64,000 nucleotides of DNA from the IMG/VR virus record IMGVR_UViG_3300037470_000672, positions 96,001-160,000 of that record, one strand, 5' to 3'. Below the pieces are notes generated by a model that was not told where the DNA came from, did no database searches, and was given only the letters and a program-made list of their open reading frames with translations. Shown one piece after another: positions 24,497 to 52,719 of the stretch. The DNA is from a virus. The position numbers and the translations under genes were made by a program. Position 1 is the first letter of the stretch. Every line of letters starts with the position of its first letter.

Positions 24497-24520
24497 TCTC
24501 GGAATTTCAAAGATCCGAAC
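24497..24520 (-). repeat. Dispersed motif A copy 1
   Basis: Plus strand TCTCGGAATTTCAAAGATCCGAAC; abuts the SD of the gp13-like gene. Confidence 0.85.
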
Positions 24521-24558
24521 GCTCTTCTGTGCATCCTTTCATCGCTGGGACGACGGGA

Positions 24559-25098
24559 TCAACTCTCCTCGACGTCGAACATCACCTTCAGCAGGTACGC
24601 CCGCAGCTCACCGACGAGTCGGACTTCGGCAGGGATCTCGATCTTGGCGGCGTCCGCCACCGCCTTCAGGTCTTTGCCCGTCATCCCCATCAGGCTGTCC
24701 GCCGTGAGCGCAGATTCCTCAGCCTGCTGTTCTTCTTGCTGCTCTTCCTGCTTCTCGACTTGCTGCTCTTTCGCCCCCTGAGCCTCTGCGTCACCCGCTG
24801 CCTTCTCTTCCTCGCGCGTCTGCGTGACCGGGTCTTCTTGGGGCGGCACAGGGGTCGCGGAGGGGGTAGATGACGCAGCCAGGTCGGGCTCGGTCTTCTT
24901 CGCAGGAGGTGACAGCGCAGGGATCACACGCACGATGGACGGAGCGGGCGGTGTGAACGGCACGAGGAGCTTTCCACCGGCCGGAGTCGCGAACTTCGCC
25001 CACTGCTCGCCAATGAGCACGGCGCCGTCTCGGACGCGACCGTAGCCGGGGACAAACGCCTGCTGGACGTCAGGATTCTTGGTGTACTGATGTTCCAT
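24559..25098 (-). CDS. Hypothetical protein with low-complexity linker and C-terminal Rho-N/HeH-like helical motif
   Basis: MTGKDLKAVADAAKIEIP...ELRAYL. Confidence 0.55.
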   Translation of the reverse strand: MEHQYTKNPDVQQAFVPGYGRVRDGAVLIGEQWAKFATPAGGKLLVPFTPPAPSIVRVIPALSPPAKKTEPDLAASSTPSATPVPPQEDPVTQTREEEKAAGDAEAQGAKEQQVEKQEEQQEEQQAEESALTADSLMGMTGKDLKAVADAAKIEIPAEVRLVGELRAYLLKVMFDVEES

Positions 25099-25363
25099 TT
25101 GACGATGTCTCCTGTTTCTCGTGGGGAACAGCGGCCAGGTCTTCCAAGCCCTGGGCGAGGGCCTTCAGTTCTGCGAGTTGGCCCTCGATGAAGAGTACCT
25201 TCTGCTGGATGCGAAGCGCCACTTGTCGGACGAGTTGGCGGTCTTCATCGGGGAGAGGAGCGGGCGGCGTCTTGCTACGCATCTTCGCGGCCTCGCCCAG
25301 GGAGGGCGCGTTCAGGGCGCCGATGGCGTTCAGCTCGCGCTCGATCTCTTCGGGGGTGGGCAT
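25070..25363 (-). CDS. Hypothetical coiled-coil protein
   Basis: 97-aa ORF with an AAGGAG RBS. Confidence 0.55.
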   Translation of the reverse strand: MPTPEEIERELNAIGALNAPSLGEAAKMRSKTPPAPLPDEDRQLVRQVALRIQQKVLFIEGQLAELKALAQGLEDLAAVPHEKQETSSNGTSVHQES

Positions 25364-25443
25364 GAGGAGGCTCCTTGGTCCGACATCCTGGGGCTGGGAA
25401 ACAGAGTAGCGCGGGGAGAACGAAGAACCAACCGCCTACTACT

Positions 25444-26472
25444 TCAAACCACATTGGCGAGGACAGAACCCTTTCGGCGCTTGAGGCGCAAGAATTTACG
25501 CTCTAGCCGCAATCCGGGAGCGGTGCCCGTATAGAGCCTACGAGCAACAAGGTCACGAGCGTCACCATTGAACCACACGGTGCGGGCACTGATATAACGT
25601 TCTCTGTCGTCGGTCTCCCACTCGACTTCCTGAATATGCCCTGGTTTCTCGCCGATGAAGTCAAGCAGCCAGTCTAAGAAGAAAGGAGACCCAGATGTAA
25701 ACGCCAATGAGTTACCACGTTTGTTAGCGTGACCGTCCCCATCAAAGCAACCCCGGAGAAAGTGCCATAACAGAGTATCGTCTCGAATCTTTGGCGGCTT
25801 CAGTGTTAGAGATTTTGCCGGGGTTATGCTGTAGTACCTTTCCAGGGCCTCTACCCAATCGACACTACACACATCCAACCAGCTATACACACGACCTGTG
25901 TTGTTGGGTTTGTCCCTTATGGGCTGGTCTAGGGTAGCGAACAGCTTGAGACTTTCGAGAATGCAGCGGTCCTTTGGGTGTACTCCAAAGGCTACAGATC
26001 TACGATTTTGCGGGACACACCCATCGGCTGCCACGAAGCCGGCGAAGTACGCAGAAACTGGGGTAGGGGTGCGAAAGAAGTCCCGATCGCACTCGGTATA
26101 CTTTGCGTACACCCGATCGGGTTTCGCTTCTCGTCCGCTGCGTCGGACGGCTTCTTGGATCCGGCCGAACGAGACCCCAAAGATCGCCCCCACCTCCGCC
26201 ATGGTCATTTTCTCGTTTGCGAAGTACATCTCGACCGCGGCGTCTGTGTCAAAAGTTGGCGGACTCGCTTCGCGATGAGAACGCGTTCGGACGCCTCGCT
26301 CCCGTAATATCTGACTCACACGCCCTTGGCTTACCCCAAACTCGGCCGCAAGTTGCGCCTGGGTCAGGTTTTTTCCTTCAGCAAGGGCCTGCGTATAGCG
26401 GTCAACCACGGCCTGGGCCGAGTGGATACGACCTCGTGGTTTGAGGTCTTTACGTCCTTTTGGCCTTCCCAT
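25444..26472 (-). mobile_element. Free-standing LAGLIDADG homing endonuclease with N-terminal HTHs
   Basis: SAYFAGFVAADGCV and HFLRGCFDGDGHA motifs; HTH-like segments QAQLAAEFGVSQGRVSQIL and MAEVGAIFGVS; appears more AT-rich than its flanks. Confidence 0.9.
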
Positions 26473-26480
26473 AGTCGGGC

Positions 26481-26509
26481 ATAGTAGTACATCAGAAGAA
26501 GAACGTAAA
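26481..26509 (-). promoter_or_regulatory. Sigma70-type promoter for the homing endonuclease (probably leaderless)
   Basis: TTTACG-N17-TACTAT, 8 nt before the ATG at 26472; no SD. Confidence 0.55.
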
Positions 26510-26539
26510 GAAAAGGGCGACCTTAGGCCGCCCTTTTCT
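26505..26539 (-). terminator. Intrinsic terminator after the major capsid gene
   Basis: Minus strand AGAAAAGGGCGGCC-TAA-GGTCGCCCTTTTCTTT: GC stem plus U tract 20 nt after the MCP stop. Confidence 0.8.
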
Positions 26540-26558
26540 CAAGCTATCTCTAGCGCGG

Positions 26559-28082: not shown

Positions 28083-28137
28083 TGTTTCTACTCCTCAGAG
28101 GGGTTTTTGTGGGAGGGGATCTCCCGGGGGTGGCCTG

Positions 28138-29928
28138 CTACGAGGCCGACAGTCGCTTGATTTCATCGAGAGAAAGGCCGGTGCCGTTGTAACTCGCCCC
28201 GGATCGAGCGTCGCTGCTTGCGTGAGCTTCCATCACCGGTTCGTTCGGGTTGGAAATGTCGTAGTCCAATCCGCCCGTACGGGCGGATTGGGGCAGTTGG
28301 GGCGCCGGCTCGACATGGCTGACGGAGTTGGAGCCTGCCAAAGCGCGCACACGGGCACGGATGGCATCGACCTGGTCCGATTCGGACATCGGGCGGCGGA
28401 ACTGGTCCAACACCTGATCCACTTCCGCTCGGTTGGTCGGCGGGTTCTCCTCGAAGTGGCTGACCATCTCCGCACGGCGGGGGTGGTGACGAAGTCGCTC
28501 GGCGATGTAGGCGTCGATCGCTTGGGCCTTGTTGAGAGTTACCGACTTCTCCAACGCCTCTTTGAGCTGGGTCATCTGCGTTTCGAGGGCCTGAACTCGC
28601 CGATCGGACTCAGACTTGACCTTGTTCATCTCCTTCTGCCGCGCGTCCTCTTGTGCCTTCTTCTCGGCCGCGCGGCGATCCAGCTCTTCTTGGACAGCGG
28701 AGACCTTGGTGGCGATCTCTTCAACAGATCCGTAGCTCGCCACGTCACCGACGATGCTGCGGATCAGATCGGCGTCGGCGCTCCCTTGAAGCTGTTGCTC
28801 CAGATAGAAGCGGTAGCCTGCCTTCTTGGCCATCGCTGCGAGCTTGTTGACCTGGTCTTCGAGCTGGACCTTCTCCTTGGAAAAGGAGCTGCGCTCGGTC
28901 GCGAGCTGGCCTTCCAGCTTGTCGATGCGGTCTTCGAGCTTGGCGACGACCGATTCCTCATCCTCGGAGAGGACGTAGGGTCGGATGACGGTCTTGATCT
29001 GTTCGACCGCCTTCATCGCGCCAGCCAACTTCGGATCGGAGAGCATGTCACCACGAACCTGCTCGGCAATCTGCTCTTTGGCGTCGACGATCTGCTGGGT
29101 CACCTTCTCGGTGACCTGTTTGACCGCCTCGTCCTTGCCCTTTTCGCGCCCGGCCTCTTCGGCTTGGAGGACGCGCTTCTCGGCATCCTCGGTGAGCTTG
29201 GCGAGTAGGGCATCTTTTTCGGCGAGCTGCTCTTGCATCTCTCGGGTCGCCTGGGCCGAGATGGCTTCAAACAGCTCGGGATGCTGTTCCTTGAGCTGCT
29301 CCTCGGTGAGGTCTTGGATCTCCATACTCAGGTTCCCCTTGTTCTCTTGGAAGGATTCTGGCCACGCATCGCGGTCTGCTGGATCGGCGACGGCGTCGAA
29401 GGTGACCAACCGGAAGCCGGGTTGGACTACAGATTCACCTTGCGCGTTGGTCCGTGTTGCGCCGAAGCCTCTGGAAGAAACACCGACCTGACAACCTGCT
29501 TCGACGATGGCTTTGAGGTTCTGTCCGCGCGCGGTGTTGAGAATCTCTGCTTCACCGTACATCACACCATCAGGTTGAAGGTCCAACTTTGTGATAACGT
29601 GAGAAATACGGTTGAGGCTTGTACGACCATCCAACGGATGGTCGGCTTCCCCGAATACACGACGCTGTTCAATCAGAGGTTGGAGGCGCTTCAGCTCCTC
29701 CGCTACGAGATTGCGCGGGTATAGGCGCTTGTTTTCGGTGGCCCGATCAGCGCGACCGAACTCACCCTTAAGGATCCACTTCTTCGGCGCACCCTCTACG
29801 ACTTCACGCTCTTCAACGACCAGAGGTGTCGACGGGTAGTAGACCCCTTCGATGAGACCCACCTGTCCCTGCGTGTCCTCCAAGAGGGCGCGACCGATTT
29901 TTTTGGCTGGGGTAGGGGGTGTACTCAT
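28138..29928 (-). CDS. Prohead protease (gp21-like) fused to coiled-coil scaffold (gp22-like)
   Basis: ENKRLYP, GEADHP, SHVI, GVSSRGFG, TFDAVADPA, then a long Glu/Lys/Ala coiled coil. Confidence 0.9.
   Translation of the reverse strand: MSTPPTPAKKIGRALLEDTQGQVGLIEGVYYPSTPLVVEEREVVEGAPKKWILKGEFGRADRATENKRLYPRNLVAEELKRLQPLIEQRRVFGEADHPLDGRTSLNRISHVITKLDLQPDGVMYGEAEILNTARGQNLKAIVEAGCQVGVSSRGFGATRTNAQGESVVQPGFRLVTFDAVADPADRDAWPESFQENKGNLSMEIQDLTEEQLKEQHPELFEAISAQATREMQEQLAEKDALLAKLTEDAEKRVLQAEEAGREKGKDEAVKQVTEKVTQQIVDAKEQIAEQVRGDMLSDPKLAGAMKAVEQIKTVIRPYVLSEDEESVVAKLEDRIDKLEGQLATERSSFSKEKVQLEDQVNKLAAMAKKAGYRFYLEQQLQGSADADLIRSIVGDVASYGSVEEIATKVSAVQEELDRRAAEKKAQEDARQKEMNKVKSESDRRVQALETQMTQLKEALEKSVTLNKAQAIDAYIAERLRHHPRRAEMVSHFEENPPTNRAEVDQVLDQFRRPMSESDQVDAIRARVRALAGSNSVSHVEPAPQLPQSARTGGLDYDISNPNEPVMEAHASSDARSGASYNGTGLSLDEIKRLSAS
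28267..28290. repeat. Palindrome B copy 1 (intragenic)
   Basis: CAATCCGCCCGTACGGGCGGATTG, a perfect 24-bp palindrome inside the protease-scaffold gene. Confidence 0.9.
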
Positions 29929-30110: not shown

Positions 30111-31651
30111 TGCGGTCCTGGCTTGCCCTTCTCTTTCGCAGCCCACTGGGCCATCTTCTTGGCGCCGTACTTCTTCTGTCCGATGGCCGCCGCCACCGCT
30201 TTGGGATCTTGGATGTCGGGGCGCTTCTCCAACTCCTTCGCCAGGGCGGCGAAGCGACCCCCCTTTCCCGTCTCGGAATTCCAAGGATCCGAGCGTCCTT
30301 TCAACCCAAAAGGGGCCTTCTCAGCTTCCATGACGGCCTCCTCGGGGAGAAGGTGCTCGTAGCAGGCTGCGAGAAAGGTGATGTCGTTGTCGTCGATGGA
30401 TTCCTTCTTGTAGCCGTTCTTCTTTGCGGCCTTCATCCCCTTGACGACCTTCATCGCCTCATCGCCGGGCATGTTGGCGAGCTTCACACCCATCTCAACC
30501 ATACCTTGCACAGCGTCCAGGGTGTCATCCTCGGACATGGTCGCCATGCCGACGAGCTTGTTCTTAAGACCCCTCACGTATGCCGGGATGTCGTCATCGG
30601 AGAGCGACTCCAGCTTGACGGCGACGCCCTTCATGAGGGCCAAAGCGTCATCGTCCGACAGTCCTTCGAGCGCGCTTGCGGCAAGCGCGATGACAGCCAG
30701 GTCTGAACCCTCAACCTGGTCCTCCTCCTCCGAGTCGGCGAAGAGGCTCACGTCTTCGATGAGGTCGTCGTAAATCTCCAACATCTCCAGAAACGTGCTG
30801 AAGAAGAGCTTGAAGTCCTCTTCAAATTCCGCCGCGTCGGTGTCGCCCAACTCGTACTCATGCAACGTCTCTGCATAGTCAGCAGCGGTCTCGGCCAGGG
30901 CGTTGACGGCCTGGCAGAACTCGATGACGCCTTCGCGGATCTCGTCATCCCCCTCCTCATCGAAGAGGTCTGCCTCGACCATCTCGGCGAGGGTCTCCTC
31001 GACCGGGACGAGTTGATGGGCAAGATCGTTGGCAGCCAGCGAGAGCGACGCGAACGCCTGCGTGTTCTCCAACACCTTGGGCGCGAGCGAGACCTTACCG
31101 GCTGCCTCCATCAGATCGTTGAGATCGGCGATCAACGCCGTCAGCGCATCCGCCTCCACCCCTTCCTGTGCAGGCGACGGACGGCGCAACGTGATGCGCT
31201 TGACACCTGACTTGCGCAGGTGGCCGAGGCGGGACTGCGCTCGCTTGTAGAGGCGCTTGAAGCGTCGGCCCGCGGCCGATCGGCGCCACTTCTTGACCAT
31301 GCGCTTCTTGACGGCCTTGACACGGCGGTACTTGCGACGGGCGAGACGTCGTTCACGACGAATCTCAGCGCCGCGCTCCTGTCGCATAATACGTGCGGCT
31401 TGCTCAGACAAGTCCGCCAACTGGTCGTCGTCCAGATCTGCTTGGTCGAGAAGCCGGGAGATCTCCGCCGCGACGCGCGCCACGTCCAGATCGACCACTT
31501 CTGCTGGGTGAGGGTCTTCCTGACGAGTGGAGTCCTCCACGATAGGAGCAGACGGCGGGGGGTTGACGATTCGCTGCACCCTTTCATCATCGCGTACCAA
31601 CCCGATGAGGGCGAAGTCTTCGGCAAGAGAAGAGAGCTTGGGCTGGGTCAC
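30107..31651 (-). CDS. Putative prohead core/internal protein with basic and acidic blocks
   Basis: Start re-assigned to GTG 31651 (GTGA overlap); Arg/Lys-rich block then Asp/Glu-rich block; sits in the T4 gp67/gp68 slot between portal and protease. Confidence 0.6.
   Translation of the reverse strand: MTQPKLSSLAEDFALIGLVRDDERVQRIVNPPPSAPIVEDSTRQEDPHPAEVVDLDVARVAAEISRLLDQADLDDDQLADLSEQAARIMRQERGAEIRRERRLARRKYRRVKAVKKRMVKKWRRSAAGRRFKRLYKRAQSRLGHLRKSGVKRITLRRPSPAQEGVEADALTALIADLNDLMEAAGKVSLAPKVLENTQAFASLSLAANDLAHQLVPVEETLAEMVEADLFDEEGDDEIREGVIEFCQAVNALAETAADYAETLHEYELGDTDAAEFEEDFKLFFSTFLEMLEIYDDLIEDVSLFADSEEEDQVEGSDLAVIALAASALEGLSDDDALALMKGVAVKLESLSDDDIPAYVRGLKNKLVGMATMSEDDTLDAVQGMVEMGVKLANMPGDEAMKVVKGMKAAKKNGYKKESIDDNDITFLAACYEHLLPEEAVMEAEKAPFGLKGRSDPWNSETGKGGRFAALAKELEKRPDIQDPKAVAAAIGQKKYGAKKMAQWAAKEKGKPGPQ
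30271..30303 (-). repeat. Dispersed motif A copy 2 (intragenic)
   Basis: TCTCGGAATTCCAAGGATCCGAGCGTCCTTTCA. Confidence 0.85.
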
Positions 31652-32562
31652 GGCGAATCCTCCGGACTCACGTCGGCTTGGGCAGCAGCTTCTACAAAAC
31701 ACCGCGCCACAGAGATTGGAAAGAGAACTTCCGACAGAACGTTGCGAAAATCGGCAAGTGTGTTGACGCTCGCGTCCTGTTGGATTGTGAGCACCTTCTC
31801 CGCAGCGGTACTGACCGTCTCTAGGTGCTCGGACAACTCCACTTGGACCCTGTCCGCGAGGCTATCAGCGCCATCTCGGAATTCCAAAGAACCGAGCGGC
31901 CTCGCATCCCCAAAGTCGAAGCTGTTGAGCTTGTTGCGCTCATCCCTAAGCATGCGCACCAGGTCTTCAAGATCGGTAACGACCTGCATTCGGTCATCAT
32001 CGCCGACGATGTTCTCGTCTAGCTTTTGGAGCTGACGCTCCTCGATCTCTTTGAGCCCTTTATGCCAACAGGCCCGCTTCAGCGTGTTTTCGTGCTCAAC
32101 CCACAGGGAGCGGAAGTCCGACCGCTGGAGGATCTCGGCCTTCGCCTTGAGAACCACTGCGGCCACATCCTGTTTTGCTGGTCGAACAGACTCTACCAGG
32201 GAAGCGAGCCGAAGAGCAGCATCTGGGTCACCGCTGAGCAAGCCCTTCACAACCTGCTCAGCTTCCTCCTGTACAAACGCCTCAAGGTTCTCCTCGGAGT
32301 AAACCTTCAGCGGTACCTGCTCGTGCCCTGTGATCCGCAAATCACCATTGCTGTCCTCATCAAAGCGCACCCTGACAGCCTTCGACGAAGCCGAGAGAAC
32401 GATGGCGTGACCAGGGAAGGTTGCCACCACCCGTGTTTCTACCCGCTCACCAAACAACCGGGGCGAGGATTCCTGCACAGCCTCCACAAGCCGCGCAATG
32501 AGGTGCTCAAAACTCCCGTTGCTGAGCTTCCTGATGTCTTCGGTGGCGAGTAAGCTGGTCAT
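31648..32562 (-). CDS. Hypothetical head-module protein
   Basis: 304-aa ORF directly downstream of the portal gene. Confidence 0.65.
   Translation of the reverse strand: MTSLLATEDIRKLSNGSFEHLIARLVEAVQESSPRLFGERVETRVVATFPGHAIVLSASSKAVRVRFDEDSNGDLRITGHEQVPLKVYSEENLEAFVQEEAEQVVKGLLSGDPDAALRLASLVESVRPAKQDVAAVVLKAKAEILQRSDFRSLWVEHENTLKRACWHKGLKEIEERQLQKLDENIVGDDDRMQVVTDLEDLVRMLRDERNKLNSFDFGDARPLGSLEFRDGADSLADRVQVELSEHLETVSTAAEKVLTIQQDASVNTLADFRNVLSEVLFPISVARCFVEAAAQADVSPEDSP
31874..31897 (-). repeat. Dispersed motif A copy 3 (intragenic)
   Basis: TCTCGGAATTCCAAAGAACCGAGC. Confidence 0.8.
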
Positions 32563-32577
32563 AGGTGTTTGGGCGAG

Positions 32578-32605
32578 TCTCGGAATTTCAAGGGTCCGAG
32601 CATCC
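32578..32605 (-). repeat. Dispersed motif A copy 4
   Basis: TCTCGGAATTTCAAGGGTCCGAGCATCC; just after the portal stop. Confidence 0.85.
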
Positions 32606-32617
32606 TTTTCTCCTGCG

Positions 32618-36774: not shown

Positions 36775-36790
36775 CCGCCCGTACGGGCGG
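36775..36790. repeat. Palindrome B copy 2
   Basis: CCGCCCGTACGGGCGG between terL and portal, within a larger AGGCTC...GAGCCT inverted repeat. Confidence 0.9.
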
Positions 36791-44012: not shown

Positions 44013-44043
44013 AACCAGTTTCTACCATCTAGTCCGCAGATTG

Positions 44044-44298
44044 TCAGCCTAGATCGGCGTTCAGGATGGTCGTAAGTGTTTCGCACTTCCCCGACACGAG
44101 GAGAAGCTCTCCTGAGAGCTTCTCGTAGAACTCGGCCGGGTTTCGCGGAGCTTCCGGGTTGTCGAGGCCCGTAGACCCGTCCACCTGGTAGTCTTCGCCA
44201 GGGACGCCGTCCGCGAGCGCAGCGACCCACTTGGTCAGGATATCCCGAGCGGTCTGGACCTCCTTGAGGACCAAGGACTGTGAGACGTTACGCATCAA
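44044..44298 (-). CDS. Hypothetical protein
   Basis: 84-aa ORF in operon orientation. Confidence 0.55.
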   Translation of the reverse strand: MMRNVSQSLVLKEVQTARDILTKWVAALADGVPGEDYQVDGSTGLDNPEAPRNPAEFYEKLSGELLLVSGKCETLTTILNADLG

Positions 44299-45227
44299 CC
44301 GGCCGCCTCAACCTCAACCTCGTCGTCTTGATCGAGCTTGTTGAGGGCTTCGAGGTGCTGGAAGCCGTAGATGATCTTCTCTTCCCTCGGCGCGGAAGGG
44401 TCGATGACGACGAGGTTGAGCCCGAAGAACATGCCGATCTTGTGCAGCATGCCGATCTTCGTAGCCTTGTCTAGCTTCTCGAAGGCATTGGTGGCGAGGA
44501 ACTCGGTACAGACGAGGTCGAGTAGCTGACCATCGTTCGCCTTACCTTTCTTCCAGCCGGTGATCTCTCTTGCGCGTTCGATAGCCTGCTCGACGTTCTC
44601 GTGCTGGCCGTCGTAGAAGAAGTAGGTCTTCTGGACGCACACCTTCGGATCTGGCAGCACATCCTGCTTTGCCTCTTCTCGGGCGGCTTTCGCTTCTTTG
44701 GCAGACCCACCTTGCCCACGGATGCGGTTGTACTCGGCGGTCACCTTCTGGAAAGCCTCGGTGATCTCGACAATGAGGAAGTCATAGTTGACCTTCTCCG
44801 CCTTTTGGATCCAATCCTGCGCCGTCTCGGCCGTCATGATTCGGACCAACTCGCGGACCTTGGCGTATCCGAGCTGGATGAGCCTCTCCTCCCAGTCCTT
44901 GGGTAGGTTCATGCCGCCGTCTTCGACGTAGAGCCTGTACCAGATCCCTTTGAGGTACTCCGCCTTACGACCGCTGAGCCCCAGCTCCTTCTGAGCGTAC
45001 TCAGTGAAAGTGCTGTAACCCCAGGACATGTAAATACCCGCGCGAAGGGGGTTGCCGTCGATGGGCGTGTCGTAGACCTCCCACAGGTACTTGGCCAACC
45101 GCATGTAGCCGGTGTCCATGTCCCGAGCGAGTTTGCGAGCTTCCCTGCGGATGTAGGTAGCCCACTCCTTCGACCCTTTCGTGCTCTTGGAGCTTTTCTT
45201 CCCGCCGTCGACCACTTCCAGCGCCAC
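44295..45227 (-). CDS. Hypothetical protein, possibly DNA-binding
   Basis: WGYSTFTEYAQKELGLSGRKAEYL HTH-like segment; GGGAGG RBS; preceded by a motif-A copy. Confidence 0.6.
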   Translation of the reverse strand: MALEVVDGGKKSSKSTKGSKEWATYIRREARKLARDMDTGYMRLAKYLWEVYDTPIDGNPLRAGIYMSWGYSTFTEYAQKELGLSGRKAEYLKGIWYRLYVEDGGMNLPKDWEERLIQLGYAKVRELVRIMTAETAQDWIQKAEKVNYDFLIVEITEAFQKVTAEYNRIRGQGGSAKEAKAAREEAKQDVLPDPKVCVQKTYFFYDGQHENVEQAIERAREITGWKKGKANDGQLLDLVCTEFLATNAFEKLDKATKIGMLHKIGMFFGLNLVVIDPSAPREEKIIYGFQHLEALNKLDQDDEVEVEAAG

Positions 45228-45239
45228 GGTTACCTCCCA

Positions 45240-45263
45240 TCTCGGAATTTCAAAGATCCGAGA
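45240..45263 (-). repeat. Dispersed motif A copy 5
   Basis: TCTCGGAATTTCAAAGATCCGAGA. Confidence 0.85.
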
Positions 45264-45319
45264 GCCGTTTCCATGATGACGTACACCCCTCGCTTGAGGG
45301 AGTCACGACAGATTTTTCA

Positions 45320-45883
45320 TCAGCCCTTCCCCGTAACCATCTTGCGAGCCATGCGAATCACGTCACTGTCCAGACTGGCTACCACGCTACCTAGCGCATC
45401 GTACGGGTGCTCCCACTTACCCTTGGGTAAGCCCTCTAAGAGGGGGGTAAGTTGATACTCAAACATCTCGTCTAGTGCCGTCTGCACTTGGTCTTTGCTG
45501 GCGTTGTTTGCGCCACACAGCTTCTTCTTGATCGCTTGTGGGCTCACTTGATTAACCGGGAGATTATTCTCCGTTACCAAAGCACCGATGATGCCCCAAC
45601 TACGCCCAATGAGCTGACAGCTTCGATTGTTGCGTGGCCAAGAAGCCCCCTCCAACGTAACAACCTCCACGCCATCGAATTTCGGGAGGAGAAAGCTGGC
45701 GATTTCTCGTGTACGTCTGAAGTCATCGTCCCCTGAGAGAAACTTCAGTTTCTTGTCGCTCTTCTTAGTCTCGACACAACCCATTGCTACAGGCACAACA
45801 CGGTCTGGCCACAGATCGCAGCGACACCAGCCGAGCTTGGCTAGTCCGAGATCGAGGCCAAGCACCGTTACCGAACGACTCAC
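45320..45883 (-). CDS. ruvC: RuvC-like Holliday junction resolvase
   Basis: VLGLDLGLAKLGW, VVTLEG, VSPQAIKKKLCG...ASKDQVQ, HPYDALG. Confidence 0.9.
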   Translation of the reverse strand: MSRSVTVLGLDLGLAKLGWCRCDLWPDRVVPVAMGCVETKKSDKKLKFLSGDDDFRRTREIASFLLPKFDGVEVVTLEGASWPRNNRSCQLIGRSWGIIGALVTENNLPVNQVSPQAIKKKLCGANNASKDQVQTALDEMFEYQLTPLLEGLPKGKWEHPYDALGSVVASLDSDVIRMARKMVTGKG

Positions 45884-46347
45884 GGATTGTCCTCATCAAG
45901 AATATTGCCGGCATCTTCGGTGACGCGGGTAGTGATCTGTTCGACCAGCCGATCTTGACGAGAAAAAGCGATCGAGGTGGCTACCACCGAACCAACAACA
46001 CGTTGCGCGTCTGCTTCTTCCGTTAGCTGACCATCTCGCTTGCGGAAGATCTTCCCGACCTCGCTCTCTACATCCTTGATGAAGTTCTTCACCTTGGTGC
46101 GATGACCGCGAAAAAGCACCGAGCAATGAAGCGTGCACACCGAGCACATCGGTACCAACTCGGCCTTCCCGGCTTCCACTTGCTCGACAACCTGCGCAGG
46201 CGTAGGAGGAACCTCCCAAAAGGCGGGTCGAGGGCAGACCGAACAAGTAGGGCGCGGTTCGCGCTTCTCGACGAAGAAACTCTCCGGGGGGAGAGGTCGA
46301 CAAGCTCCCGGGTTGATCATCAAAGGCTTCTTGTGACGCCGCGTCAA
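45880..46347 (-). CDS. Zn-finger hypothetical protein
   Basis: CSVC...CSVCTLHC; TTG start with GGGGAGG RBS. Confidence 0.55.
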   Translation of the reverse strand: MTRRHKKPLMINPGACRPLPPESFFVEKREPRPTCSVCPRPAFWEVPPTPAQVVEQVEAGKAELVPMCSVCTLHCSVLFRGHRTKVKNFIKDVESEVGKIFRKRDGQLTEEADAQRVVGSVVATSIAFSRQDRLVEQITTRVTEDAGNILDEDNP

Positions 46348-46359
46348 CCGTCCTCCCCT

Positions 46360-46392
46360 TCTCGGAATTTCAAGGATCCGAGCATCCGTTCA
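46360..46392 (-). repeat. Dispersed motif A copy 6
   Basis: TCTCGGAATTTCAAGGATCCGAGCATCCGTTCA. Confidence 0.9.
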
Positions 46393-47364
46393 ACTTTCCC
46401 CAAAGCATTGGTCGCTCACAGGGCAACCAAGAGCGCGTTTGCAGTCGGCAGTCTCGCAAATGCGCTCCGGGACGACTCCCAACCCCACGAGCGCAGGAAG
46501 CGCACCCGCGCTCTCCGTCTCAGACGCTTCTTCCATAGCTTGGTGCGCTTCTGCAACCGCTTGCAACCCACTATTGAGCCGTCTAGCCGCCTCCCGAATG
46601 TTCTCGATCGTCTCCTCGTCGCGATCGACAAAGTGCTCCTGAAACGCGCTTATACCGTTTGTCCCCTTGTGCCAGTAGAGGATGACAGCCCACTGAAGAC
46701 CCGTGAACATCATGTAGACGTGCGCTTGGATTACATGGTCAAACATCGGCGACTTTTTGACCTTCCAGATGTTGCCGATGCTCTTGGCTTCGAGGATCCC
46801 CAAACCGTCACGCCCTGGGATATCGAGCACCCCGTCGCAGTGCCCCGACAGCTTCAGCTCCGGGTCTTGGAATAATAGCTCTTCATGGGATAGGACGTTG
46901 CCCGGAGCGTCACAGAAGAGACACCTCTCTGGACGCAATGTGACGATCTCTCGCCACGGCGCGTAGGGCGGCGGTTCCCAATCGTTTGGTGGCTCTCCGT
47001 AGACCCAACTCTTCTCACGAGGCAGTGTCTGATCTTTTCGATGCAGAGAGCCGCACGCACGGCATCGCCACTGACCGAGGAGGAGACCTGGTACCTGCGG
47101 AAGGATCAGGTCTTGGAGCGCGTAGTGCAACGCCGTTCCGTGATCAAAGATCAGCCTGAGGTCGGTGTCGATCTCGCTGGTGCGTGTCACCCGAAACAGC
47201 GCCGCCAGTACCTCCTCACGCAAGCACAAGGAGTGGAACCCCGAAGCCCGGTACACTCGCCCCAGCGACGGCGGGGGTTCCTCACTACGCTCAGTGAGAT
47301 GCCGGTTGATGAGGCGCACGAGCGAGTCGCTGCCTACCGACTGAAGAAAATCCGCCACAACCAC
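46390..47364 (-). CDS. Cas4-like/RecB-family PD-(D/E)xK exonuclease
   Basis: SLCLRE, HGTALH, SGHCDG...ILEAKS, QAHVYM and a C-terminal Cys cluster (CETADC...CPVSDQC). Confidence 0.8.
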   Translation of the reverse strand: MVVADFLQSVGSDSLVRLINRHLTERSEEPPPSLGRVYRASGFHSLCLREEVLAALFRVTRTSEIDTDLRLIFDHGTALHYALQDLILPQVPGLLLGQWRCRACGSLHRKDQTLPREKSWVYGEPPNDWEPPPYAPWREIVTLRPERCLFCDAPGNVLSHEELLFQDPELKLSGHCDGVLDIPGRDGLGILEAKSIGNIWKVKKSPMFDHVIQAHVYMMFTGLQWAVILYWHKGTNGISAFQEHFVDRDEETIENIREAARRLNSGLQAVAEAHQAMEEASETESAGALPALVGLGVVPERICETADCKRALGCPVSDQCFGES

Positions 47365-47666: not shown

Positions 47667-48064
47667 TCCTCCTCCGTGGTCAAACCCAAAACCCGTTGCG
47701 CGACAGACAAGGGTATTAGAATCCAGTCTTCCGACGGATGTCCGTCTTCCTCAAAGGTGATGACTACAGCGGGGTCTTTGTCCGCTCGCTTTGCCCCTTG
47801 AGAGACTTTGTCAAGCCACGCGCGTTTCAAGCTGAGCGACTTGCACTCGGTGCGCTTGTGCTCGACATGGAGCAACGGCGTTCTGATGTCCGCGCGATCT
47901 GTGACGCTCGATTGTGCGGACCACGCCGCGCCCCCAGATCGTCGGATACGTTTCCCACCGAGAGAAGCGGCGATACGTCTTTCAGCTTTGGTCGACCGGC
48001 GGGTTCTTTCCCCCGAAGGAGCACCGATCAACCAGCCGGGTTTTGGTGGTTCGTTTTCAGGCAT
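47663..48064 (-). CDS. PD-(D/E)xK nuclease, Hjc-like resolvase candidate
   Basis: AERRIAASLGGKRIRRSG...ADI...VEHK...W...PAVVITF. Confidence 0.65.
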   Translation of the reverse strand: MPENEPPKPGWLIGAPSGERTRRSTKAERRIAASLGGKRIRRSGGAAWSAQSSVTDRADIRTPLLHVEHKRTECKSLSLKRAWLDKVSQGAKRADKDPAVVITFEEDGHPSEDWILIPLSVAQRVLGLTTEEE

Positions 48065-49760
48065 CCGGGGGCGCGTTCATGTCCAGGTCGTCTTCGTTCT
48101 GATCGGAACTCGTTGTTGTGTTTGTGGTGTCTGTCGCTTCCCCGAGCCGATCGAACAACTCGAAAAGCGTGTCGTAGACCTCCCAGTAGTAGCGCCGATC
48201 AGTCATCATCTTCAGCAAGATGGGCTTCTTACCGGCGTACTTCTCACCAAAGATCGTGTAGCTAGCGCCAGCTCCGGTTAGCAGGCCGACCTTTTCGCAC
48301 TGGTCGAGGAGCCAAGACTCGTCGGCGATCTCACCCATTTTCTTGTGCTCACCGTTAGCTGTGAGCATCCGAAACGTACCTTCGTACTTGGCAACAGACG
48401 TCTTGTTCTTCTCTATGCGATAGTGGAAGTCGGCATAGACGGGCGCTTCATCATCCCCTTTTTCTTGCTTGTACTCTGCGTAACCAAACCGTACTTCTGT
48501 TCCAGCAGCAAACTGCGGAGCCTGACCTCCAGGCTGAACTTCGGGGGAATTGTGAACCACAATCCCACGAGAGTCCCCGCCCACAAGGTAGAAGCTGTCT
48601 CCTTCGATCTTTAGATCAAACTTCCGGCGATCGCGGTGCTTCTTCTTCGATAGGTGAATGGAGCGGACTTTTACCTCTATAGGTATCCTACGCACAGTAG
48701 GGGAAAGAGATGCCTCGTACCAAGACAAAAGGGTGTCTCCAGGACGAACTTCAGAAGCTCTAACTTCTTGACCACCCCCTCCAATGAGGAGGTGGTTCTC
48801 TGTGCACGTGAATCCGTGTGCTCCTCTTCTTCCCCCAGATCCGTCGACACGGAAAGTCAACCAACGCTCGTCTTCGCTCAACTTTCCGTTCTCGTACCAA
48901 TCCACGATGGGGCGTTCGACGATCCTTTCCCCGTCCCACGATAGTACAGGACCTGTAAGACGACGCCGAACAACCTCAACGATGGGAACAACAGACCCGT
49001 CAGCAAACATGACAGGGGTTTGCGAATGAAAACAGCCAAACATCACCCCTAGCTTCATGCGGATCTGGTTCGTCAAGAATACGGTAGGGGGTTGCCCATC
49101 TTCCCGCCTTCTGACAGTAATGGCGCTGTTGATCTTTCGAATACCTCTACCGAGGGCTCGGGATTGGAGCGCTTGGTTCTCTTTGGCGACGGAGTCTTGG
49201 ATCTCTTTGACCGGTGTGAGGAAGGCGATGGAGTCGATGCCGATGACATCGACCTCTCCCGAGAGGACGAGTCCTTCAGCGATGTCGAGCGCCTCTTCAG
49301 CGTAGACGGGCTCCGCAAGGGCGATCTCAGAGATGTCGCAAAAACGCCCGGCCCACTCAGGATCCCACTCCTCCAAGCGGATGTGAGCGCACACATGCGG
49401 ATCGAAGCTCTTCTTTCCGCAGGCGCAGTTTCCAGGGTCGAGCACAGTGAGTTGCCCACATGTACGACAGGTGAGCTGTGCCATCCCGTACGTGCGGAAG
49501 AGAGTGGTCGTCTTGCCGCAAGATTTCTTTCCGAAGAGGGTGTGGAAGTAACCCTTGGCCCACCCGCCTCCCAGATGTTTGTCCATCGGCGCGATGCCGG
49601 AACAGATTCTTGTGATCTTTGGCGCTTCGTTACCTGCACGCAAAACGTTGCCGTACAGCTTTGTGATAGCAGCGACCTCGCTGGACTCCATAAGCCGTTT
49701 GACACCACGCCGCTTGGTCTTCGGCTCGGGTCGGTCGTCGGACTTCTTCTTGCGGGCCAA
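48057..49760 (-). CDS. recA: RecA/UvsX-like recombinase precursor with mini-intein
   Basis: Walker A FGKKSCGKTT, IGIDSIAFL, FLTNQIRMKLGVMFG/SPEVQPGG. Confidence 0.92.
   Translation of the reverse strand: MARKKKSDDRPEPKTKRRGVKRLMESSEVAAITKLYGNVLRAGNEAPKITRICSGIAPMDKHLGGGWAKGYFHTLFGKKSCGKTTTLFRTYGMAQLTCRTCGQLTVLDPGNCACGKKSFDPHVCAHIRLEEWDPEWAGRFCDISEIALAEPVYAEEALDIAEGLVLSGEVDVIGIDSIAFLTPVKEIQDSVAKENQALQSRALGRGIRKINSAITVRRREDGQPPTVFLTNQIRMKLGVMFGCFHSQTPVMFADGSVVPIVEVVRRRLTGPVLSWDGERIVERPIVDWYENGKLSEDERWLTFRVDGSGGRRGAHGFTCTENHLLIGGGGQEVRASEVRPGDTLLSWYEASLSPTVRRIPIEVKVRSIHLSKKKHRDRRKFDLKIEGDSFYLVGGDSRGIVVHNSPEVQPGGQAPQFAAGTEVRFGYAEYKQEKGDDEAPVYADFHYRIEKNKTSVAKYEGTFRMLTANGEHKKMGEIADESWLLDQCEKVGLLTGAGASYTIFGEKYAGKKPILLKMMTDRRYYWEVYDTLFELFDRLGEATDTTNTTTSSDQNEDDLDMNAPPDA
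48549..49034 (-). mobile_element. RecA mini-intein (162 aa, no endonuclease)
   Basis: Starts CFHSQTPVMFADG, block B CTENHLL, ends GIVVHN before Ser; inserted in GVMFG/SPE. Confidence 0.9.
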
Positions 49761-49787
49761 AAACCCTCCCAGTGCGCTTCATGTGCG

Positions 49788-49820
49788 TCTCGGAGTTTCA
49801 AGGATCCGAGCATCCGTTCA
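49788..49820 (-). repeat. Dispersed motif A copy 7
   Basis: TCTCGGAGTTTCAAGGATCCGAGCATCCGTTCA; upstream of recA. Confidence 0.9.
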
Positions 49821-49826
49821 CACCAC

Positions 49827-50161
49827 TCAGAACGGCTCGTCGAGCACGTTCTTCATCTTCCCACCCCGCACTCGATTCCGAGCCTCTTGGATGCGCTGGC
49901 CAACCCAATCCTCCGCGAAGGCGTAGGCGTCGTTCAGCTCCTCCTTGTAGCAGGGTACGGTGACACCGACATCGACCCGAACAGTCTCGTAGTTACCTAC
50001 GTTGAGCGTCAGACCGACCGCAAACTTGACCTCGGCGGGTTGGACCCGTCGGGAAAACGAGCCACGTGAAGGGTCTCCTGCTCGCTCTCCTGCGACCCAA
50101 CATCTTCCCCCGACTTCTTGAACTGGGCGGTCATGCTGACCGTGGCCTCTTTCTCCTGCAT
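49827..50161 (-). pseudogene. Hypothetical protein split by a single -1 frameshift (sequence error or real)
   Basis: MQEKEATV...LHVARFPDG continues in the -1 frame as VQPAEVKFAVGLTLNVGNYETVRVDVG...EPF*; the span is 335 nt, one short of a full frame. Confidence 0.6.
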
Positions 50162-50192
50162 CTTGACTTCCCCTGCATCTGTCTTTGTGAAC

Positions 50193-50960: not shown

Positions 50961-50967
50961 ACGCCAT

Positions 50968-50996
50968 AACCTAACGCTAAGGGGAAGGATAGTCAA
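50968..50996 (-). promoter_or_regulatory. Sigma70-type promoter for the MerR-like gene (probably leaderless)
   Basis: TTGACT-N17-TAGGTT, 7 nt before ATG 50960. Confidence 0.6.
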
Positions 50997-51018
50997 GCCT
51001 GTAATAGTCAAGCCTGTA
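50989..51018. repeat. Exact 15-bp tandem duplication ATAGTCAAGCCTGTA x2
   Basis: 50989-51003 and 51004-51018; spans the helicase stop codon. Confidence 0.9.
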
Positions 51019-52357
51019 AGCGCGTGTAGAGCTTCTCTCTGTTGAGCCCGGCGCGCTTGAACATCGGCACGTTATCGTCCCGGATGTCGATGACAATAGG
51101 GTCCTTCTTGCTCGGGTACGGACGGAGGATGCGCCCGACCGCTTGCTCTGCATCCCAGATAGGGGTGGCCAGGCAAAGCGTATCCAGGGGTGGGTAGTCG
51201 AAACCCTCTGACACGAGCTGCGCTGTGGCGAAGAGGACCCGCGCTTGGTCGAATGCCGCGCCCCGCTCAGCATCCTTCATTTCCTTGGCGACCTTGCCGG
51301 TGTAGACCAGGGAGGGTGGAACTGTCCCGAGACGCTTCTTTGCGATGCTTTGGAACACACTCTGTAGCTCAGAACAGTGCGGTACCCTCTCTGACAAGAC
51401 CAACACCTTTCGGCCGGCGTCTACTGCGCCTGCGACCTGTTCGGCGACGCGACTGTTCCGGGACTTGGACGCACAGAGGAAGCGCAGGAGCAGGTTCTTA
51501 CCGGCCACGCTCGTGCCCTCTGCGTCGCGCACCCGAAAGTCGGTCCACACCCGCTTGACCTGGAACCCCAAGCGCAGGGCCGTTCCCCGATAAACGATCG
51601 GCCCGATGTGATGGAGAAAAACATCATCGCCACCGTCGCGTCTTCGAGGAGTAGCAGACAATCCAAGCCTATGCCTTGCGGGGAAACAAGGGGCTACTGG
51701 GCTCCATGTTTCCGCAGAGATTCTGTGGACTTCATCAGCTATTACTAAGCCAGGCCAAACGGATAGTTTTTCGTCCACACCTCTCTCTGCAAGAGTTTGC
51801 AACATGGCTATGCAAACATGGCTACCATCCAATTCCCGCTTGTCGGCTTGGAGGATACCCACCTTAGCGTCTGGGAGGAACTGCGCTAGGCGCTCCTTCC
51901 ACTGGCTGAGGAGAAATTCCTTGTGCACCAGGACGAGGGTAGGTCGCTGGAGCTGCGCAATGAGGTAGGCCGCCAGGACGGTCTTTCCGAAAGCGGTAGG
52001 GGCTTGGACGATACCGCCTAGCTTACCGGCCTGGAAGTGGTCGAGGACCGCCTTGGCGGCGTCTGGCTGATCGTTGATCAATTCACCATGGAACCGCACG
52101 TCTCCTGGCCATTGTGCGCCGTCTGTAAGCCCGTAGGTAACGTCGTGCCCGCGACTCTGGTTACCGAGGAAGTATTCTCTCGGCACTCCGAAGTGCGTAC
52201 CGGTCTCCCGGTAGAGTTGGATAGGCGCAGGGGTGGGACCTGGGTGATCGCCGAGCTTCCGGCGCTTGATGGTCAGACGATTGCGCAGGAGGGGGACATG
52301 ATCAGCCTGTAGATCGTTCAGATCCAACCAAGCCCACCCGTCGATAAAAACCCGCAT
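51008..52357 (-). CDS. Superfamily 2 DNA helicase (UvsW/XPB-like)
   Basis: APTAFGKT, IADEVH, GLSATP, EGFD.P.LD, QAVGRILR; start re-assigned to ATG 52357. Confidence 0.9.
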   Translation of the reverse strand: MRVFIDGWAWLDLNDLQADHVPLLRNRLTIKRRKLGDHPGPTPAPIQLYRETGTHFGVPREYFLGNQSRGHDVTYGLTDGAQWPGDVRFHGELINDQPDAAKAVLDHFQAGKLGGIVQAPTAFGKTVLAAYLIAQLQRPTLVLVHKEFLLSQWKERLAQFLPDAKVGILQADKRELDGSHVCIAMLQTLAERGVDEKLSVWPGLVIADEVHRISAETWSPVAPCFPARHRLGLSATPRRRDGGDDVFLHHIGPIVYRGTALRLGFQVKRVWTDFRVRDAEGTSVAGKNLLLRFLCASKSRNSRVAEQVAGAVDAGRKVLVLSERVPHCSELQSVFQSIAKKRLGTVPPSLVYTGKVAKEMKDAERGAAFDQARVLFATAQLVSEGFDYPPLDTLCLATPIWDAEQAVGRILRPYPSKKDPIVIDIRDDNVPMFKRAGLNREKLYTRLQA

Positions 52358-52379
52358 CAGTGCCTTGCAACCATGCGCA

Positions 52380-52628
52380 TCAGTAGCGGTTGAAAAAGGC
52401 GGCGCTGCCTTTTGTCTCGGCCGAGCGTTGGAAGCTGGTCTCTTTGACCACCGCACCCCACCAGATGTCCGGCAGGGCGATCGGCTCACGGGACTTCCAG
52501 GAGTAGTCGATCTGACGTCGATGACCGCCGGGATCGTCTACGACGACCTCTACCTTCTTGGCTTCGGGGTTCAAATGGGCTCTAACGAGAGTGGGCTCGT
52601 GGGCCGGTTTGGTGAGAGGTTCTGTCAT
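52380..52628 (-). CDS. Hypothetical protein
   Basis: 82-aa ORF between the SSB and helicase genes. Confidence 0.5.
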   Translation of the reverse strand: MTEPLTKPAHEPTLVRAHLNPEAKKVEVVVDDPGGHRRQIDYSWKSREPIALPDIWWGAVVKETSFQRSAETKGSAAFFNRY

Positions 52629-52637
52629 CAGGTACCT

Positions 52638-52659
52638 AATCCGCCCGTACGGGCGGATT
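52638..52659. repeat. Palindrome B copy 3
   Basis: AATCCGCCCGTACGGGCGGATT. Confidence 0.9.
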
Positions 52660-52699
52660 GGCTAGCGAGCCTAGGCGCCCTCATAGACGCCTAGGCTCG

Positions 52700-52719
52700 T
52701 CTCGGAATTCCGAGCATTC
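52700..52719 (-). repeat. Dispersed motif A copy 8 (8-nt internal deletion)
   Basis: TCTCGGAATTCCGAGCATTC; collapses to the perfect palindrome CTCGGAATTCCGAG. Confidence 0.7.

Follow-up and report, generated by a model that had tools for sequence, protein, structure and literature searches.

Solitary repeats of a phage-encoded CRISPR-Cas12m system are dispersed between and inside the phage's own genes

Results

A co-oriented hairpin motif lies against gene starts and within head-region genes

The window analyzed here, a 64-kb stretch of DNA, is part of a 175.9-kb record of a T4-like phage. The original prediction had singled out eight co-oriented copies of a hairpin motif in this window. A search with the hairpin core (6-nt arms and a 10-nt loop, accepting exact matches or a single mismatch) recovered seven full copies, with core matches at window positions 24498, 30272, 31875, 32579, 45241, 46361 and 49789; one loop-deleted copy completes the same set, where the chance expectation is 0. 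The 33-nt consensus, searched with up to 3 mismatches, gave 4 matches, compared with 0.00 expected from 100 shuffles. All copies in the window share a single orientation, the minus strand, which is the gene strand. Taken at their full 36-nt length, the seven full copies are listed below as solitary Cas12m repeat units (SRUs), a designation that we justify in the following section, together with the eighth, degenerate copy.

24496–24531, minus strand: SRU with intact hairpin and AC tail; an insertion of about 11 nt displaces its 5′ part
30270–30305, minus strand: SRU inside a 514-aa head-region gene, in frame, 12 codons
31873–31908, minus strand: SRU inside a 304-aa gene, the next after the portal gene, in frame
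32577–32612, minus strand: SRU between the portal gene (32618–36745) and the 304-aa gene (31648–32562)
45239–45274, minus strand: SRU before a 310-aa gene (44295–45227), with GTG 11 nt downstream; abuts GGGAGG
46359–46394, minus strand: SRU before a 155-aa gene (45880–46347), with TTG 11 nt downstream; abuts GGGGAGGA
49787–49822, minus strand: SRU before a 567-aa UvsX/RecA-like gene (48057–49760), with the gene start 26 nt downstream
52698–52725, minus strand: degenerate repeat derivative; 8 nt of the loop deleted

Measured from the end of the 36-nt unit, the start codon follows after 10, 14, 11, 11 and 26 nt for the copies at 24496, 32577, 45239, 46359 and 49787, respectively. These are the same values as the 11–15 nt and 27 nt reported originally, which were counted from 1 nt earlier. 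The unit at 24496 stands before the GTG of a 248-aa gp13/head-tail adaptor-like gene (23739–24485) and touches its AGGAG, while the unit at 32577 occupies most of a 55-nt intergenic gap that leads to an ATG. At 46359, the first 6 nt of the unit contain the TGA stop of an upstream 324-aa ORF.

The two copies described as intragenic do lie inside genes, as gene calls made independently by JGI on contigs with 100% identity place those at 30270 and 31873 within the 514-aa and 304-aa genes. Downstream of the former, a 61-aa gene starts after 159 nt, and downstream of the latter, an in-frame GTG occurs after 30 nt. The frame through the unit at 30270 reads CCT TGG AAT, and the loop variant common among the other copies would put a TGA in frame, bearing out the earlier proposal that the change at this copy avoids a stop codon. 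The 8-nt loss noted for the last copy is likewise real. It leaves a 14-nt perfect palindrome, and two more hairpins come after it.

The hairpin motif is the repeat of a type V-M CRISPR-Cas12m system encoded by the phage itself

The motif extends beyond the window: the 175.9-kb record contains 31 copies, some of them in three tandem arrays of identical 36-nt repeats separated by spacers of 37–42 nt. The main array, with 6 repeats, is found at the contig ends behind a tRNA cluster; another, with 2 repeats, is located at 78.5 kb of the genome. The third array, of 3 repeats, directly follows a cas12m gene that lies outside the window (genome 56196–57974, minus strand). Its 592-aa product matches Cas12m in PDB entry 23vw_A (E=2e-80, residues 18–544 of 592) and, over its full length, PADLOC Cas12u1 (E=2e-103, 1–545 against 1–530 of 533), and it also matches the Pfam Cas12f1-like TNB domain. 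The RuvC-like residues D293, E443 and D534 and the zinc-ribbon cysteines C505, C508, C524 and C527 align with PDB Cas12m and are invariant with the corresponding protein of a second phage, G001, described below. As judged from these alignments, the product is a full-length Cas12m (type V-M/V-U1). It belongs to the D-E-D variant, one of the known D-E-D, H-D-D and N-D-D variants; the published Cas12m proteins with D-E-D nevertheless leave DNA uncut (PMC11013384). Cas1 and Cas2 profiles found no match across the record. One degenerate repeat copy lies antisense at genome 62486–62521 and might give rise to an anti-repeat RNA, although Cas12m does not require one.

The repeat consists of 36 nt with a 6-bp stem at positions -24 to -19 and -8 to -3, followed by AC, and the same hairpin and tail design is found in the Cas12m2 crRNA scaffold (PMC10442227). 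The dispersed hairpin and the direct repeat of the phage's type V-M CRISPR-Cas12m system are one and the same 36-nt element, the crRNA scaffold. A solitary CRISPR-repeat-like RNA had been raised by the original prediction as a less likely alternative; the identity was right, and the low ranking was not.

Racrs, RNA anti-CRISPRs (PMC10651486), are defined by the presence of solitary repeat units in viral genomes, and decoys of this kind could titrate a host-encoded Cas12m. Against this, the cognate effector and arrays belong to the phage itself, and the units form part of mRNAs instead of being small RNAs transcribed from their own promoters. Nor did the repeat core have an exact match in 185,579 species genomes, in IMG/VR or in JGI metagenome contigs, collections in which the phage's host may not be represented. 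We consider a decoy role highly improbable.

Solitary units are uniformly sense-oriented and conserved in their scaffold

Genome-wide, we counted 17 SRUs scattered over 165 kb, situated within long minus-strand transcription units and mostly in short intergenic gaps. Every one (17/17) is sense-oriented on the gene strand, and 10 are intergenic, compared with 12.8% expected (P about 1e-5, on a deliberately crude gene map). A start codon lies 10–26 nt beyond the unit end in nine SRUs, stop codons of upstream genes fall inside some units, and other units precede 130–160 nt of non-coding sequence. One SRU heads a tRNA trio instead of an ORF, an arrangement more in keeping with RNA processing than with translational control alone. 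The terminal repeats of the arrays relate to the next gene as SRUs do.

Conservation across the 17 units is concentrated in the Cas12m-binding scaffold, the hairpin plus AC (positions -24 to -1, 95%), falling to 76% in the 5′ part and to 38–45% in the flanks. All other contigs found for this phage are 100% identical.

The conserved features, an RNA scaffold and strict sense orientation, bear on the promoter or operator for a DNA-binding protein that was the first choice of the original prediction. The motif is dispersed, co-oriented, partly palindromic and upstream of genes, and its loop has a TTGAAA, all of which would suit a phage-specific element of that kind. However, a consensus scan of 19.5 kb, confined to sigma-70 promoters (-35 and -10 at proper spacing), found none at any copy, and the start codon 10–14 nt downstream of four window copies leaves no room for a -10 element and leader. 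The motif is, moreover, identical to the CRISPR repeat beside cas12m, and its stems covary between systems as RNA would. The promoter or operator reading is thus unsupported, and we regard it as hardly credible.

Comparison of the 40 nt after each unit with the rest of the genome gave no match beyond chance (best 14–18 nt, not seed-anchored). No self-target of the phage guides was found, and each guide's only perfect target is its own locus. Cas12m naturally blocks transcription under RNA guidance (PMC11013384, PMC10442227), and with its own locus as sole perfect target, a unit-derived guide could return Cas12m to its own site at a gene start, to act there as a roadblock to transcription or a feedback insulator. 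Such binding requires a PAM, however, and known PAMs are T- or C-rich, whereas a conserved GAC or CAC repeat end fills the PAM position in every system examined. By the same logic, the arrays would silence themselves. DNA-level self-binding is therefore very unlikely.

Other Cas12m phages scatter unrelated repeats of their own

Three other Cas12m phage contigs (G001, L025 and L026) scatter their own, different repeats. Phage G001 encodes a Cas12m with 34% identity and a repeat of unrelated sequence, present as 7 array repeats and about 8 solitary copies. L025 has at least 18 extra units, located between small genes, and L026 has extra units before cas12m and elsewhere. As the extra units of G001 and L025 are mostly 40–300 nt from the next gene, abutment to the Shine-Dalgarno sequence is not general. 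In these two contigs, the regions after the units also lack a seed-anchored match elsewhere in their own genome. Across ten systems, stems differ by compensatory changes, with the design of a 6-bp stem and AC kept. Dispersal is not obligatory for a Cas12m system, as the GenBank phage Rctr197k carries Cas12m and an array of ~19 repeats without dispersed copies.

Genes neighboring cas12m in this clade encode ThyX, UvrD helicase, Dam and MT-A70 methylases, a DNA polymerase exonuclease and an integrase. Our survey of homologues shows the Cas12m clade of this phage to be largely phage-borne, extending beyond the single published phage case.

The scattered units could be debris, non-functional or selfish: single repeats spread by recombination with arrays and kept wherever a 36-nt (12-codon) insert is tolerated. 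The 36-nt length is divisible by three, two in-frame copies are tolerated, and degenerate derivatives exist (the loop deletion at window 52698, the 5′ insertion at window 24496 and the antisense copy at genome 62486); Rctr197k, for its part, manages without dispersed units. On the other hand, 17/17 sense orientation and 95% conservation of the scaffold against about 40% of the flanks would be unexpected under neutrality, and at least three other Cas12m phage contigs scatter repeats in a like manner although their repeat sequences are unrelated. This explanation seems to us unlikely.

A candidate role for Cas12m on phage mRNAs

The function we favor is the second choice of the original prediction, an RNA hairpin for processing or translational control, with Cas12m now named as its partner. 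Characterized Cas12m proteins bind the hairpin and cut pre-crRNA within the repeat independently of RuvC (PMC11013384, PMC10442227), so that each SRU is expected to be a docking and cleavage site. Processing of mRNA-embedded units by the phage Cas12m is extrapolated from orthologues no more than 35% identical to it. On our analysis, there is about an even chance that SRUs are Cas12m docking and processing sites on phage mRNAs, controlling cistron separation or translation.

Under this model, Cas12m would dock at each SRU on a polycistronic phage mRNA and cut upstream of the hairpin, separating the downstream cistron. It would then stay on the new 5′ end, with the following ~17–20 nt held in its guide channel; in nine cases, these nucleotides would comprise the Shine-Dalgarno sequence and start codon. 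The model predicts that about 15 phage genes and one tRNA cluster are controlled post-transcriptionally by Cas12m. Candidate effects are cistron uncoupling, translational repression or 5′-end stabilization, and the effect could be of either sign.

Several observations temper this cis-acting model. Shine-Dalgarno abutment is not shared by most extra units of G001 and L025, and Rctr197k has no dispersed copies at all. Two units lie inside coding sequences, where cleavage would truncate two head-gene mRNAs, which the model does not predict. Additionally, the genome is tightly packed, and any tolerated 36-nt insert between a stop codon and a Shine-Dalgarno sequence will abut the latter; the characteristic geometry could thus be a by-product of insertion constraints.

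The in-frame units inside conserved head genes are better accommodated if the SRUs act in trans. Here, an SRU and the following ~17–20 nt would form a one-unit crRNA gene with a hard-wired guide, the phage's own gene start, and a co-infecting relative lacking the insert would be silenced, in the service of inter-phage competition or allele exclusion. By its established activity, Cas12m binds DNA in a PAM-dependent manner and thereby blocks transcription, its PAMs being T- or C-rich; the repeat end GAC in the PAM position would spare the phage, and a T/C-rich PAM in the relative would allow binding. The conserved part of the SRUs is the scaffold needed for guide loading, array-terminal repeats share the placement of SRUs, and genuine single spacers could follow the units that precede 130–160 nt of non-coding sequence. 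However, we found no relative of the window phage or of G001 that could reveal insert-less alleles, and by reading of the sequence, the nucleotides just upstream of the units share no T/C-rich motif that would mark an ancestral PAM. The tRNA-heading unit also has no obvious target in a competitor. We therefore treat trans-acting guides as a possibility, though a distinctly less probable one than action on mRNA in cis.

CRISPR repeats are usually regarded as components of arrays, and those that occur singly in viruses as decoys for host Cas proteins. The window phage instead combines an effector and arrays with about 17 lone cognate repeats, sense-oriented between or inside its own genes, which suggests that a CRISPR protein is employed on the phage's own messenger RNAs. 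Units acting in cis would represent natural regulation of mRNAs by a Cas protein via its repeat, a role new to type V effectors, and would offer a compact, ready-made module for RNA processing and translation control. Units acting in trans would be a new kind of fixed guide, through which the phage's own gene starts become weapons to use on its relatives. In both cases, the arrangement makes testable why non-cutting Cas12m systems persist on mobile elements.

Comparison with known systems

The phage effector is a full-length homologue of the type V-M (formerly V-U1) proteins MmCas12m2, GoCas12m and MsCas12m (PMC10442227, PMC11013384). The phage system shares with them the 36-nt repeat with its 6-bp 3′ hairpin and AC, the array right after the effector gene and carriage on a mobile element; as no Cas1 or Cas2 profile matched the record, it probably also shares the lack of adaptation genes, and it probably has no need for tracrRNA. 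Unlike the type V-M systems described in these papers, it adds 17 single repeats in transcription units and against ribosome-binding sites. For MvCas12m of myxophage MV-1, only the effector with an adjacent array is reported (bioRxiv 10.64898/2026.09.14.751636), and we found no description in the literature of a Cas12m phage that scatters its own repeats among its genes.

The likeness to Racrs (PMC10651486; reviewed in PMC11656645) lies in single CRISPR repeats in a virus genome that keep the Cas-binding structure, here 17 units with an intact hairpin. Racrs, however, mimic host repeats and poison host Cas proteins, whereas the repeat here belongs to the effector of the phage itself, the searches revealed no host array with it, and the 17 copies lie inside mRNAs. 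Like the SRUs under the favored model, crRNA-like regulatory RNAs (tracr-L, CreR/crlRNA and phage crlRNAs, bioRxiv 10.1101/2024.10.29.618823) are repeat-derived units serving regulation, not immunity. They differ in that crlRNA guides are partly complementary to a promoter elsewhere, whereas the window phage has no seed-anchored match to other genome sites.

T4 RegA is a translational repressor of many early mRNAs and RegB an endoribonuclease that cuts at Shine-Dalgarno sequences, while the MS2 operator hairpin is an RNA element recognized by the phage coat protein. If the favored model is right, the window phage resembles these in pairing one phage protein with a short RNA element at many ribosome-binding sites; there is no homology, and here the RNA element is a CRISPR repeat and the protein a Cas12 effector. 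With somewhat less than even confidence, we propose more broadly that a CRISPR effector has been co-opted as a phage expression factor: Cas12m would cut and/or sit on phage mRNAs via hairpins before about 15 cistrons and a tRNA cluster, a natural counterpart of RegA and RegB common to a clade of soil Cas12m phages, each with its own repeats. In engineered constructs, Csy4/Cas6 or Cas12a repeats placed between cistrons or in UTRs let the cognate Cas protein cut the transcript and insulate the cistrons. Those insulators are man-made, and the phage SRUs would be their natural counterpart.

The dispersed hairpin is the repeat of the phage's own CRISPR arrays

The hairpin motif originally predicted in the window is real: a search for two 6-nt arms spaced 10 nt apart recovered seven copies at 0-1 mismatch. 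The predicted 33-nt consensus had four matches at ≤3 mismatches in the window and none in 100 shuffles. The single orientation ascribed to the copies was confirmed, as each, read on the minus strand, runs as the genes do, and the supposed eighth copy, near 52700, derives from the motif by loss of 8 nt from the loop. Reading the sequence, with gene calls made independently, also bore out the distances given between copies and start codons, the presence of two intragenic copies, and, from the sequence reading, the in-frame TGA that one copy was said to avoid. Extending the motif search genome-wide, as had been proposed, yielded 31 copies in the whole 175,906-bp IMG/VR virus record, of which the window covers positions 96001-160000.

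Two interpretations of the motif fared less well. It had been taken foremost for a promoter or operator; this was rejected, as a sigma-70-like scan found no site at any copy and the start codon lies too close to leave space for a sigma-70 promoter ahead of it. A CRISPR-repeat-like RNA had been ranked as a less likely alternative; the likeness to a CRISPR repeat held up and the low ranking did not, given the tandem arrays and the cas12m gene in the record.

The motif is the repeat of the phage's own Cas12m CRISPR arrays. At the start of the contig, six copies lie head to tail with periods of 73-78 nt; the 36-nt repeats are identical, the spacers (37-42 nt) are unique, and an AT-rich leader is found on the side where minus-strand transcription would place it, which together identify a CRISPR array. 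The first two copies of this main array recur as the two copies at the contig end, indicating that the contig closes on itself within the array. Two shorter arrays occur elsewhere.

Further arrays of the repeat in the record
Directly downstream of a 592-aa ORF (genome 56196-57974, minus strand): second array, three repeats
At 78.5 kb of the genome: third array, two repeats

Sequence comparison identifies the 592-aa protein as a Cas12m. It matches the Cas12m structure PDB 23vw over nearly its full length (E=2e-80), with 8pm4 and 23vu also matched, and the PADLOC Cas12u1 model from end to end (E=2e-103), V-U1 being the earlier name of V-M (PMC11013384). It contains a Pfam Cas12f1-like TNB domain, and the Cas12m residues D293, E443 and D534 and four zinc-ribbon cysteines are all there. 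Neither Cas1 nor Cas2 is encoded in the record. The repeat is 36 nt long and forms a 6-bp stem between positions -24 to -19 and -8 to -3 (counted from the 3' end) with AC after the stem, the same design as the Cas12m2 crRNA (PMC10442227); this stem is the predicted fold both of the repeat alone and in four mRNA contexts. An Rfam search of the phage returned tRNAs only and no CRISPR-DR family. The array spacers gave only chance-level matches to the phage's own genome, GenBank phages and PLSDB plasmids, from which no target or PAM could be inferred. As to restriction sites in the repeat copies, the one at window 30270-30305 among them, the array repeat contains an EcoRI site (GAATTC), and a BamHI site (GGATCC) is found in most solitary variants as well; both are probably incidental to the palindromic stem.

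Solitary repeats share the gene strand and a conserved scaffold

Seventeen units lie outside arrays in the whole record, and all 17 are on the minus strand, which is the gene strand. Among them the scaffold at positions -24 to -1, the part touched by Cas12m in the solved complex, is 95% conserved and the 5' part 76%, while the 12-nt flanks on both sides are at background (38-45%). Intergenic positions account for 10 of the 17 scaffolds (P about 1e-5, on a crude gene map, our own outside the window, that is 12.8% intergenic).

Nine units end 10-26 nt ahead of a start codon, several of them directly abutting a purine-rich Shine-Dalgarno (SD) sequence. In some cases the TGA stop of the upstream ORF falls within the unit, so that unit and SD make up the entire intercistronic region; by JGI gene calls, the gap between the portal gene and a 304-aa gene is 55 nt, of which the unit takes 36. 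Two units are intragenic, in frame within the 304-aa gene and a 514-aa gene of the head region, one lies 42 nt upstream of the tRNA gene trio that precedes the main array, and each of the remainder is followed by 34-160 nt of non-coding sequence. The genes downstream of units are of mixed classes, encoding an HTH regulator, a gp13/adaptor-like protein, UvsX and proteins without assigned function.

Other features lie beside the units. Eight minus-strand tRNA genes (Met, Phe, one via Rfam, Tyr, Gln, Trp, Arg; genome 600-1260 and 2728-2803) stand immediately upstream of the main-array leader with a solitary repeat in their midst; a single precursor may give rise to both tRNAs and crRNAs. Also dispersed is a second element, a GC-rich palindrome of 16 nt centered on GTAC, with 13 exact copies genome-wide, mostly intergenic and usually flanked by AAT and ATTG. 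Three of them (genome 914, 42183 and 62461) are directly upstream of a solitary Cas12m repeat, and the palindrome could be a terminator-like or regulatory hairpin.

Copies of the GTAC palindrome in the window
28271-28286: palindrome
36775-36790: palindrome
52641-52656: palindrome
60057-60072: palindrome

At genome 62486-62597 (8486-8597 of L008, a stretch of the record), a degenerate copy of the repeat in antisense comes 40 nt after a solitary repeat, with the GTAC palindrome next. The transcript of this region is predicted by folding to form a long imperfect duplex and a hairpin (-76.9 kcal/mol, z = -7.2), which could sequester that unit, be cleaved by RNase III or serve as an anti-repeat RNA.

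The phage and its relatives

The phage is T4-like, with an intein-bearing gp20 portal, gp21 protease, gp23 capsid protein, gp13, sheath, UvsX, DNA polymerase A and at least seven tRNA genes. The T4-type portal gene (window 32618-36745, minus strand) reaches 1375 aa because of intein splicing domains and an HNH endonuclease domain. Just downstream of gp23, a 342-aa ORF (window 25444-26472, minus strand) has weak sigma-70 region 4, HTH and LAGLIDADG matches in the JGI precomputed table and may be a homing endonuclease or late regulator.

The record ends (genome 1-116 and 175765-175880) have 116 nt in common inside the array and then run into different spacers, indicating that the assembly broke or collapsed there. 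A 222,336-bp JGI contig, 100% identical over 21.5 kb, exceeds one genome length by coordinate arithmetic, so the phage genome is probably complete and circularly permuted despite a CheckV estimate of 83%. The same phage, 100% identical, is present in at least five JGI samples, and it is abundant and clonal across several JGI metagenomes of soil type.

No divergent relatives were found in the collections searched. No GenBank phage matched 20 kb of the window by megablast, and the exact repeat core occurred only in the window's own record across IMG/VR, JGI metagenome contigs and 185,579 GTDB species genomes. A Cas12m-based locus search found one IMG/VR relative (G001) and none among species genomes; searches via UvsX and via a G001 protein found none. 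Homologues of the 514-aa head protein were confined to its own 90% cluster, and the retrievable contigs that carry it are all 100% identical to the window (one 99.995%).

Dispersed repeats recur in other Cas12m-encoding elements

G001 is a complete 109.8-kb phage of 65.6% GC whose Cas12m is 34% identical to the 592-aa protein. A 7-repeat array follows its cas12m, with a repeat of unrelated sequence and the same design, and about eight solitary copies of that repeat, including two immediately ahead of cas12m, are spread across 65 kb. Among 282 Cas12m homologues of a large protein collection, ten contexts, a small and non-random set with metagenome contigs covered over 21 kb each, were nearly all phage-like DNA. 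One contig (L025) has at least 18 extra repeat units within 8 kb, single or in short arrays, all lying in one orientation between small genes, and another (L026) has extra units ahead of cas12m and at two other sites. Dispersed repeats are therefore not peculiar to one genome.

Other elements differ or are less informative. The plasmid-like L024 has a single long array only, and Rctr197k (GenBank KX853510), whose Cas12m is annotated 'similar to transposase', has an annotated CRISPR of ~19 repeats and no dispersed copies. In Rctr197k a second annotated CRISPR with a different repeat (L031:4939-6834; KX853510.1 119281-121176) lies beside a 467-aa 'transposase-like protein', so that this phage may carry two systems of TnpB/Cas12 type. 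Contigs L028 and L030 end right after cas12m, L019 and L020 are too short for judging lone repeats, and L027 and L029, each with an array after cas12m, stand outside the lone-copy comparison.

The 6-bp stem and AC tail are maintained across Cas12m systems while the stem itself covaries, for example from G-C to A-T between this phage and Rctr197k, and L029 has four different stems inside one array; such compensatory change is the hallmark of RNA structure under conservation. The arrays of L029 (11850-12900) and L027 (11875-12720) have strongly heterogeneous repeats in which compensatory changes keep the hairpin, which suggests that these arrays are old and do not turn over their spacers, in keeping with guide sets that are fixed and not adaptive.

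That the solitary units are neutral debris is improbable, as their orientation, conservation and recurrence all argue against it.

Possible roles of the solitary units

In published work, Cas12m enzymes bind the hairpin of the repeat and, without needing RuvC, cleave the precursor inside the repeat on the upstream side of that hairpin (PMC11013384, PMC10442227). By analogy, a unit within a polycistronic phage mRNA should be bound and cut by Cas12m, which would cap the 5' end of the downstream cistron with Cas12m and place the next ~17-20 nt in the Cas12m guide channel. For nine genes those nucleotides would be the SD and start codon, so that under this model translation would have to be affected. 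We favor this action in cis on phage mRNAs, giving it about an even chance, on the strength of the strict sense orientation, the occupation of whole intercistronic gaps and the one unit heading tRNA genes. In the main rival model, every unit would serve as a guide gene of one unit, with a gene start of the phage itself as the guide that silences co-infecting relatives lacking the insert. This model seems to us rather unlikely, though it accommodates the in-frame intragenic copies better and relies on the one proven activity of Cas12m. Action in cis and guiding in trans are not mutually exclusive.

A crlRNA-type regulator was rejected, as the 40 nt after each unit have only chance-level matches elsewhere in the genome, and the guides of G001 and L025 likewise had no self-targets. 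The units are probably not DNA-level self-targets: the Cas12m PAMs known are rich in T or C (PMC11013384), and here the conserved GAC/CAC end of the repeat occupies the PAM position. A 'Cas12 hacker' preprint has no bearing here, as it concerns a tracrRNA-dependent Cas12p.

Solitary repeats in viruses are known as RNA anti-CRISPRs (Racrs; PMC10651486), and a Racr decoy against a host system was rejected as far as testable, the repeat core having been found nowhere else and the effector being the phage's own. Type V-M systems are likewise known, and are reported to be enriched on plasmids and present in some prophages (PMC11656645), and one phage Cas12m was published as the 'first' in September 2026 (bioRxiv 10.64898/2026.09.14.751636). 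A full-text search found no account of a phage or plasmid scattering its own Cas12m repeat through its genes.
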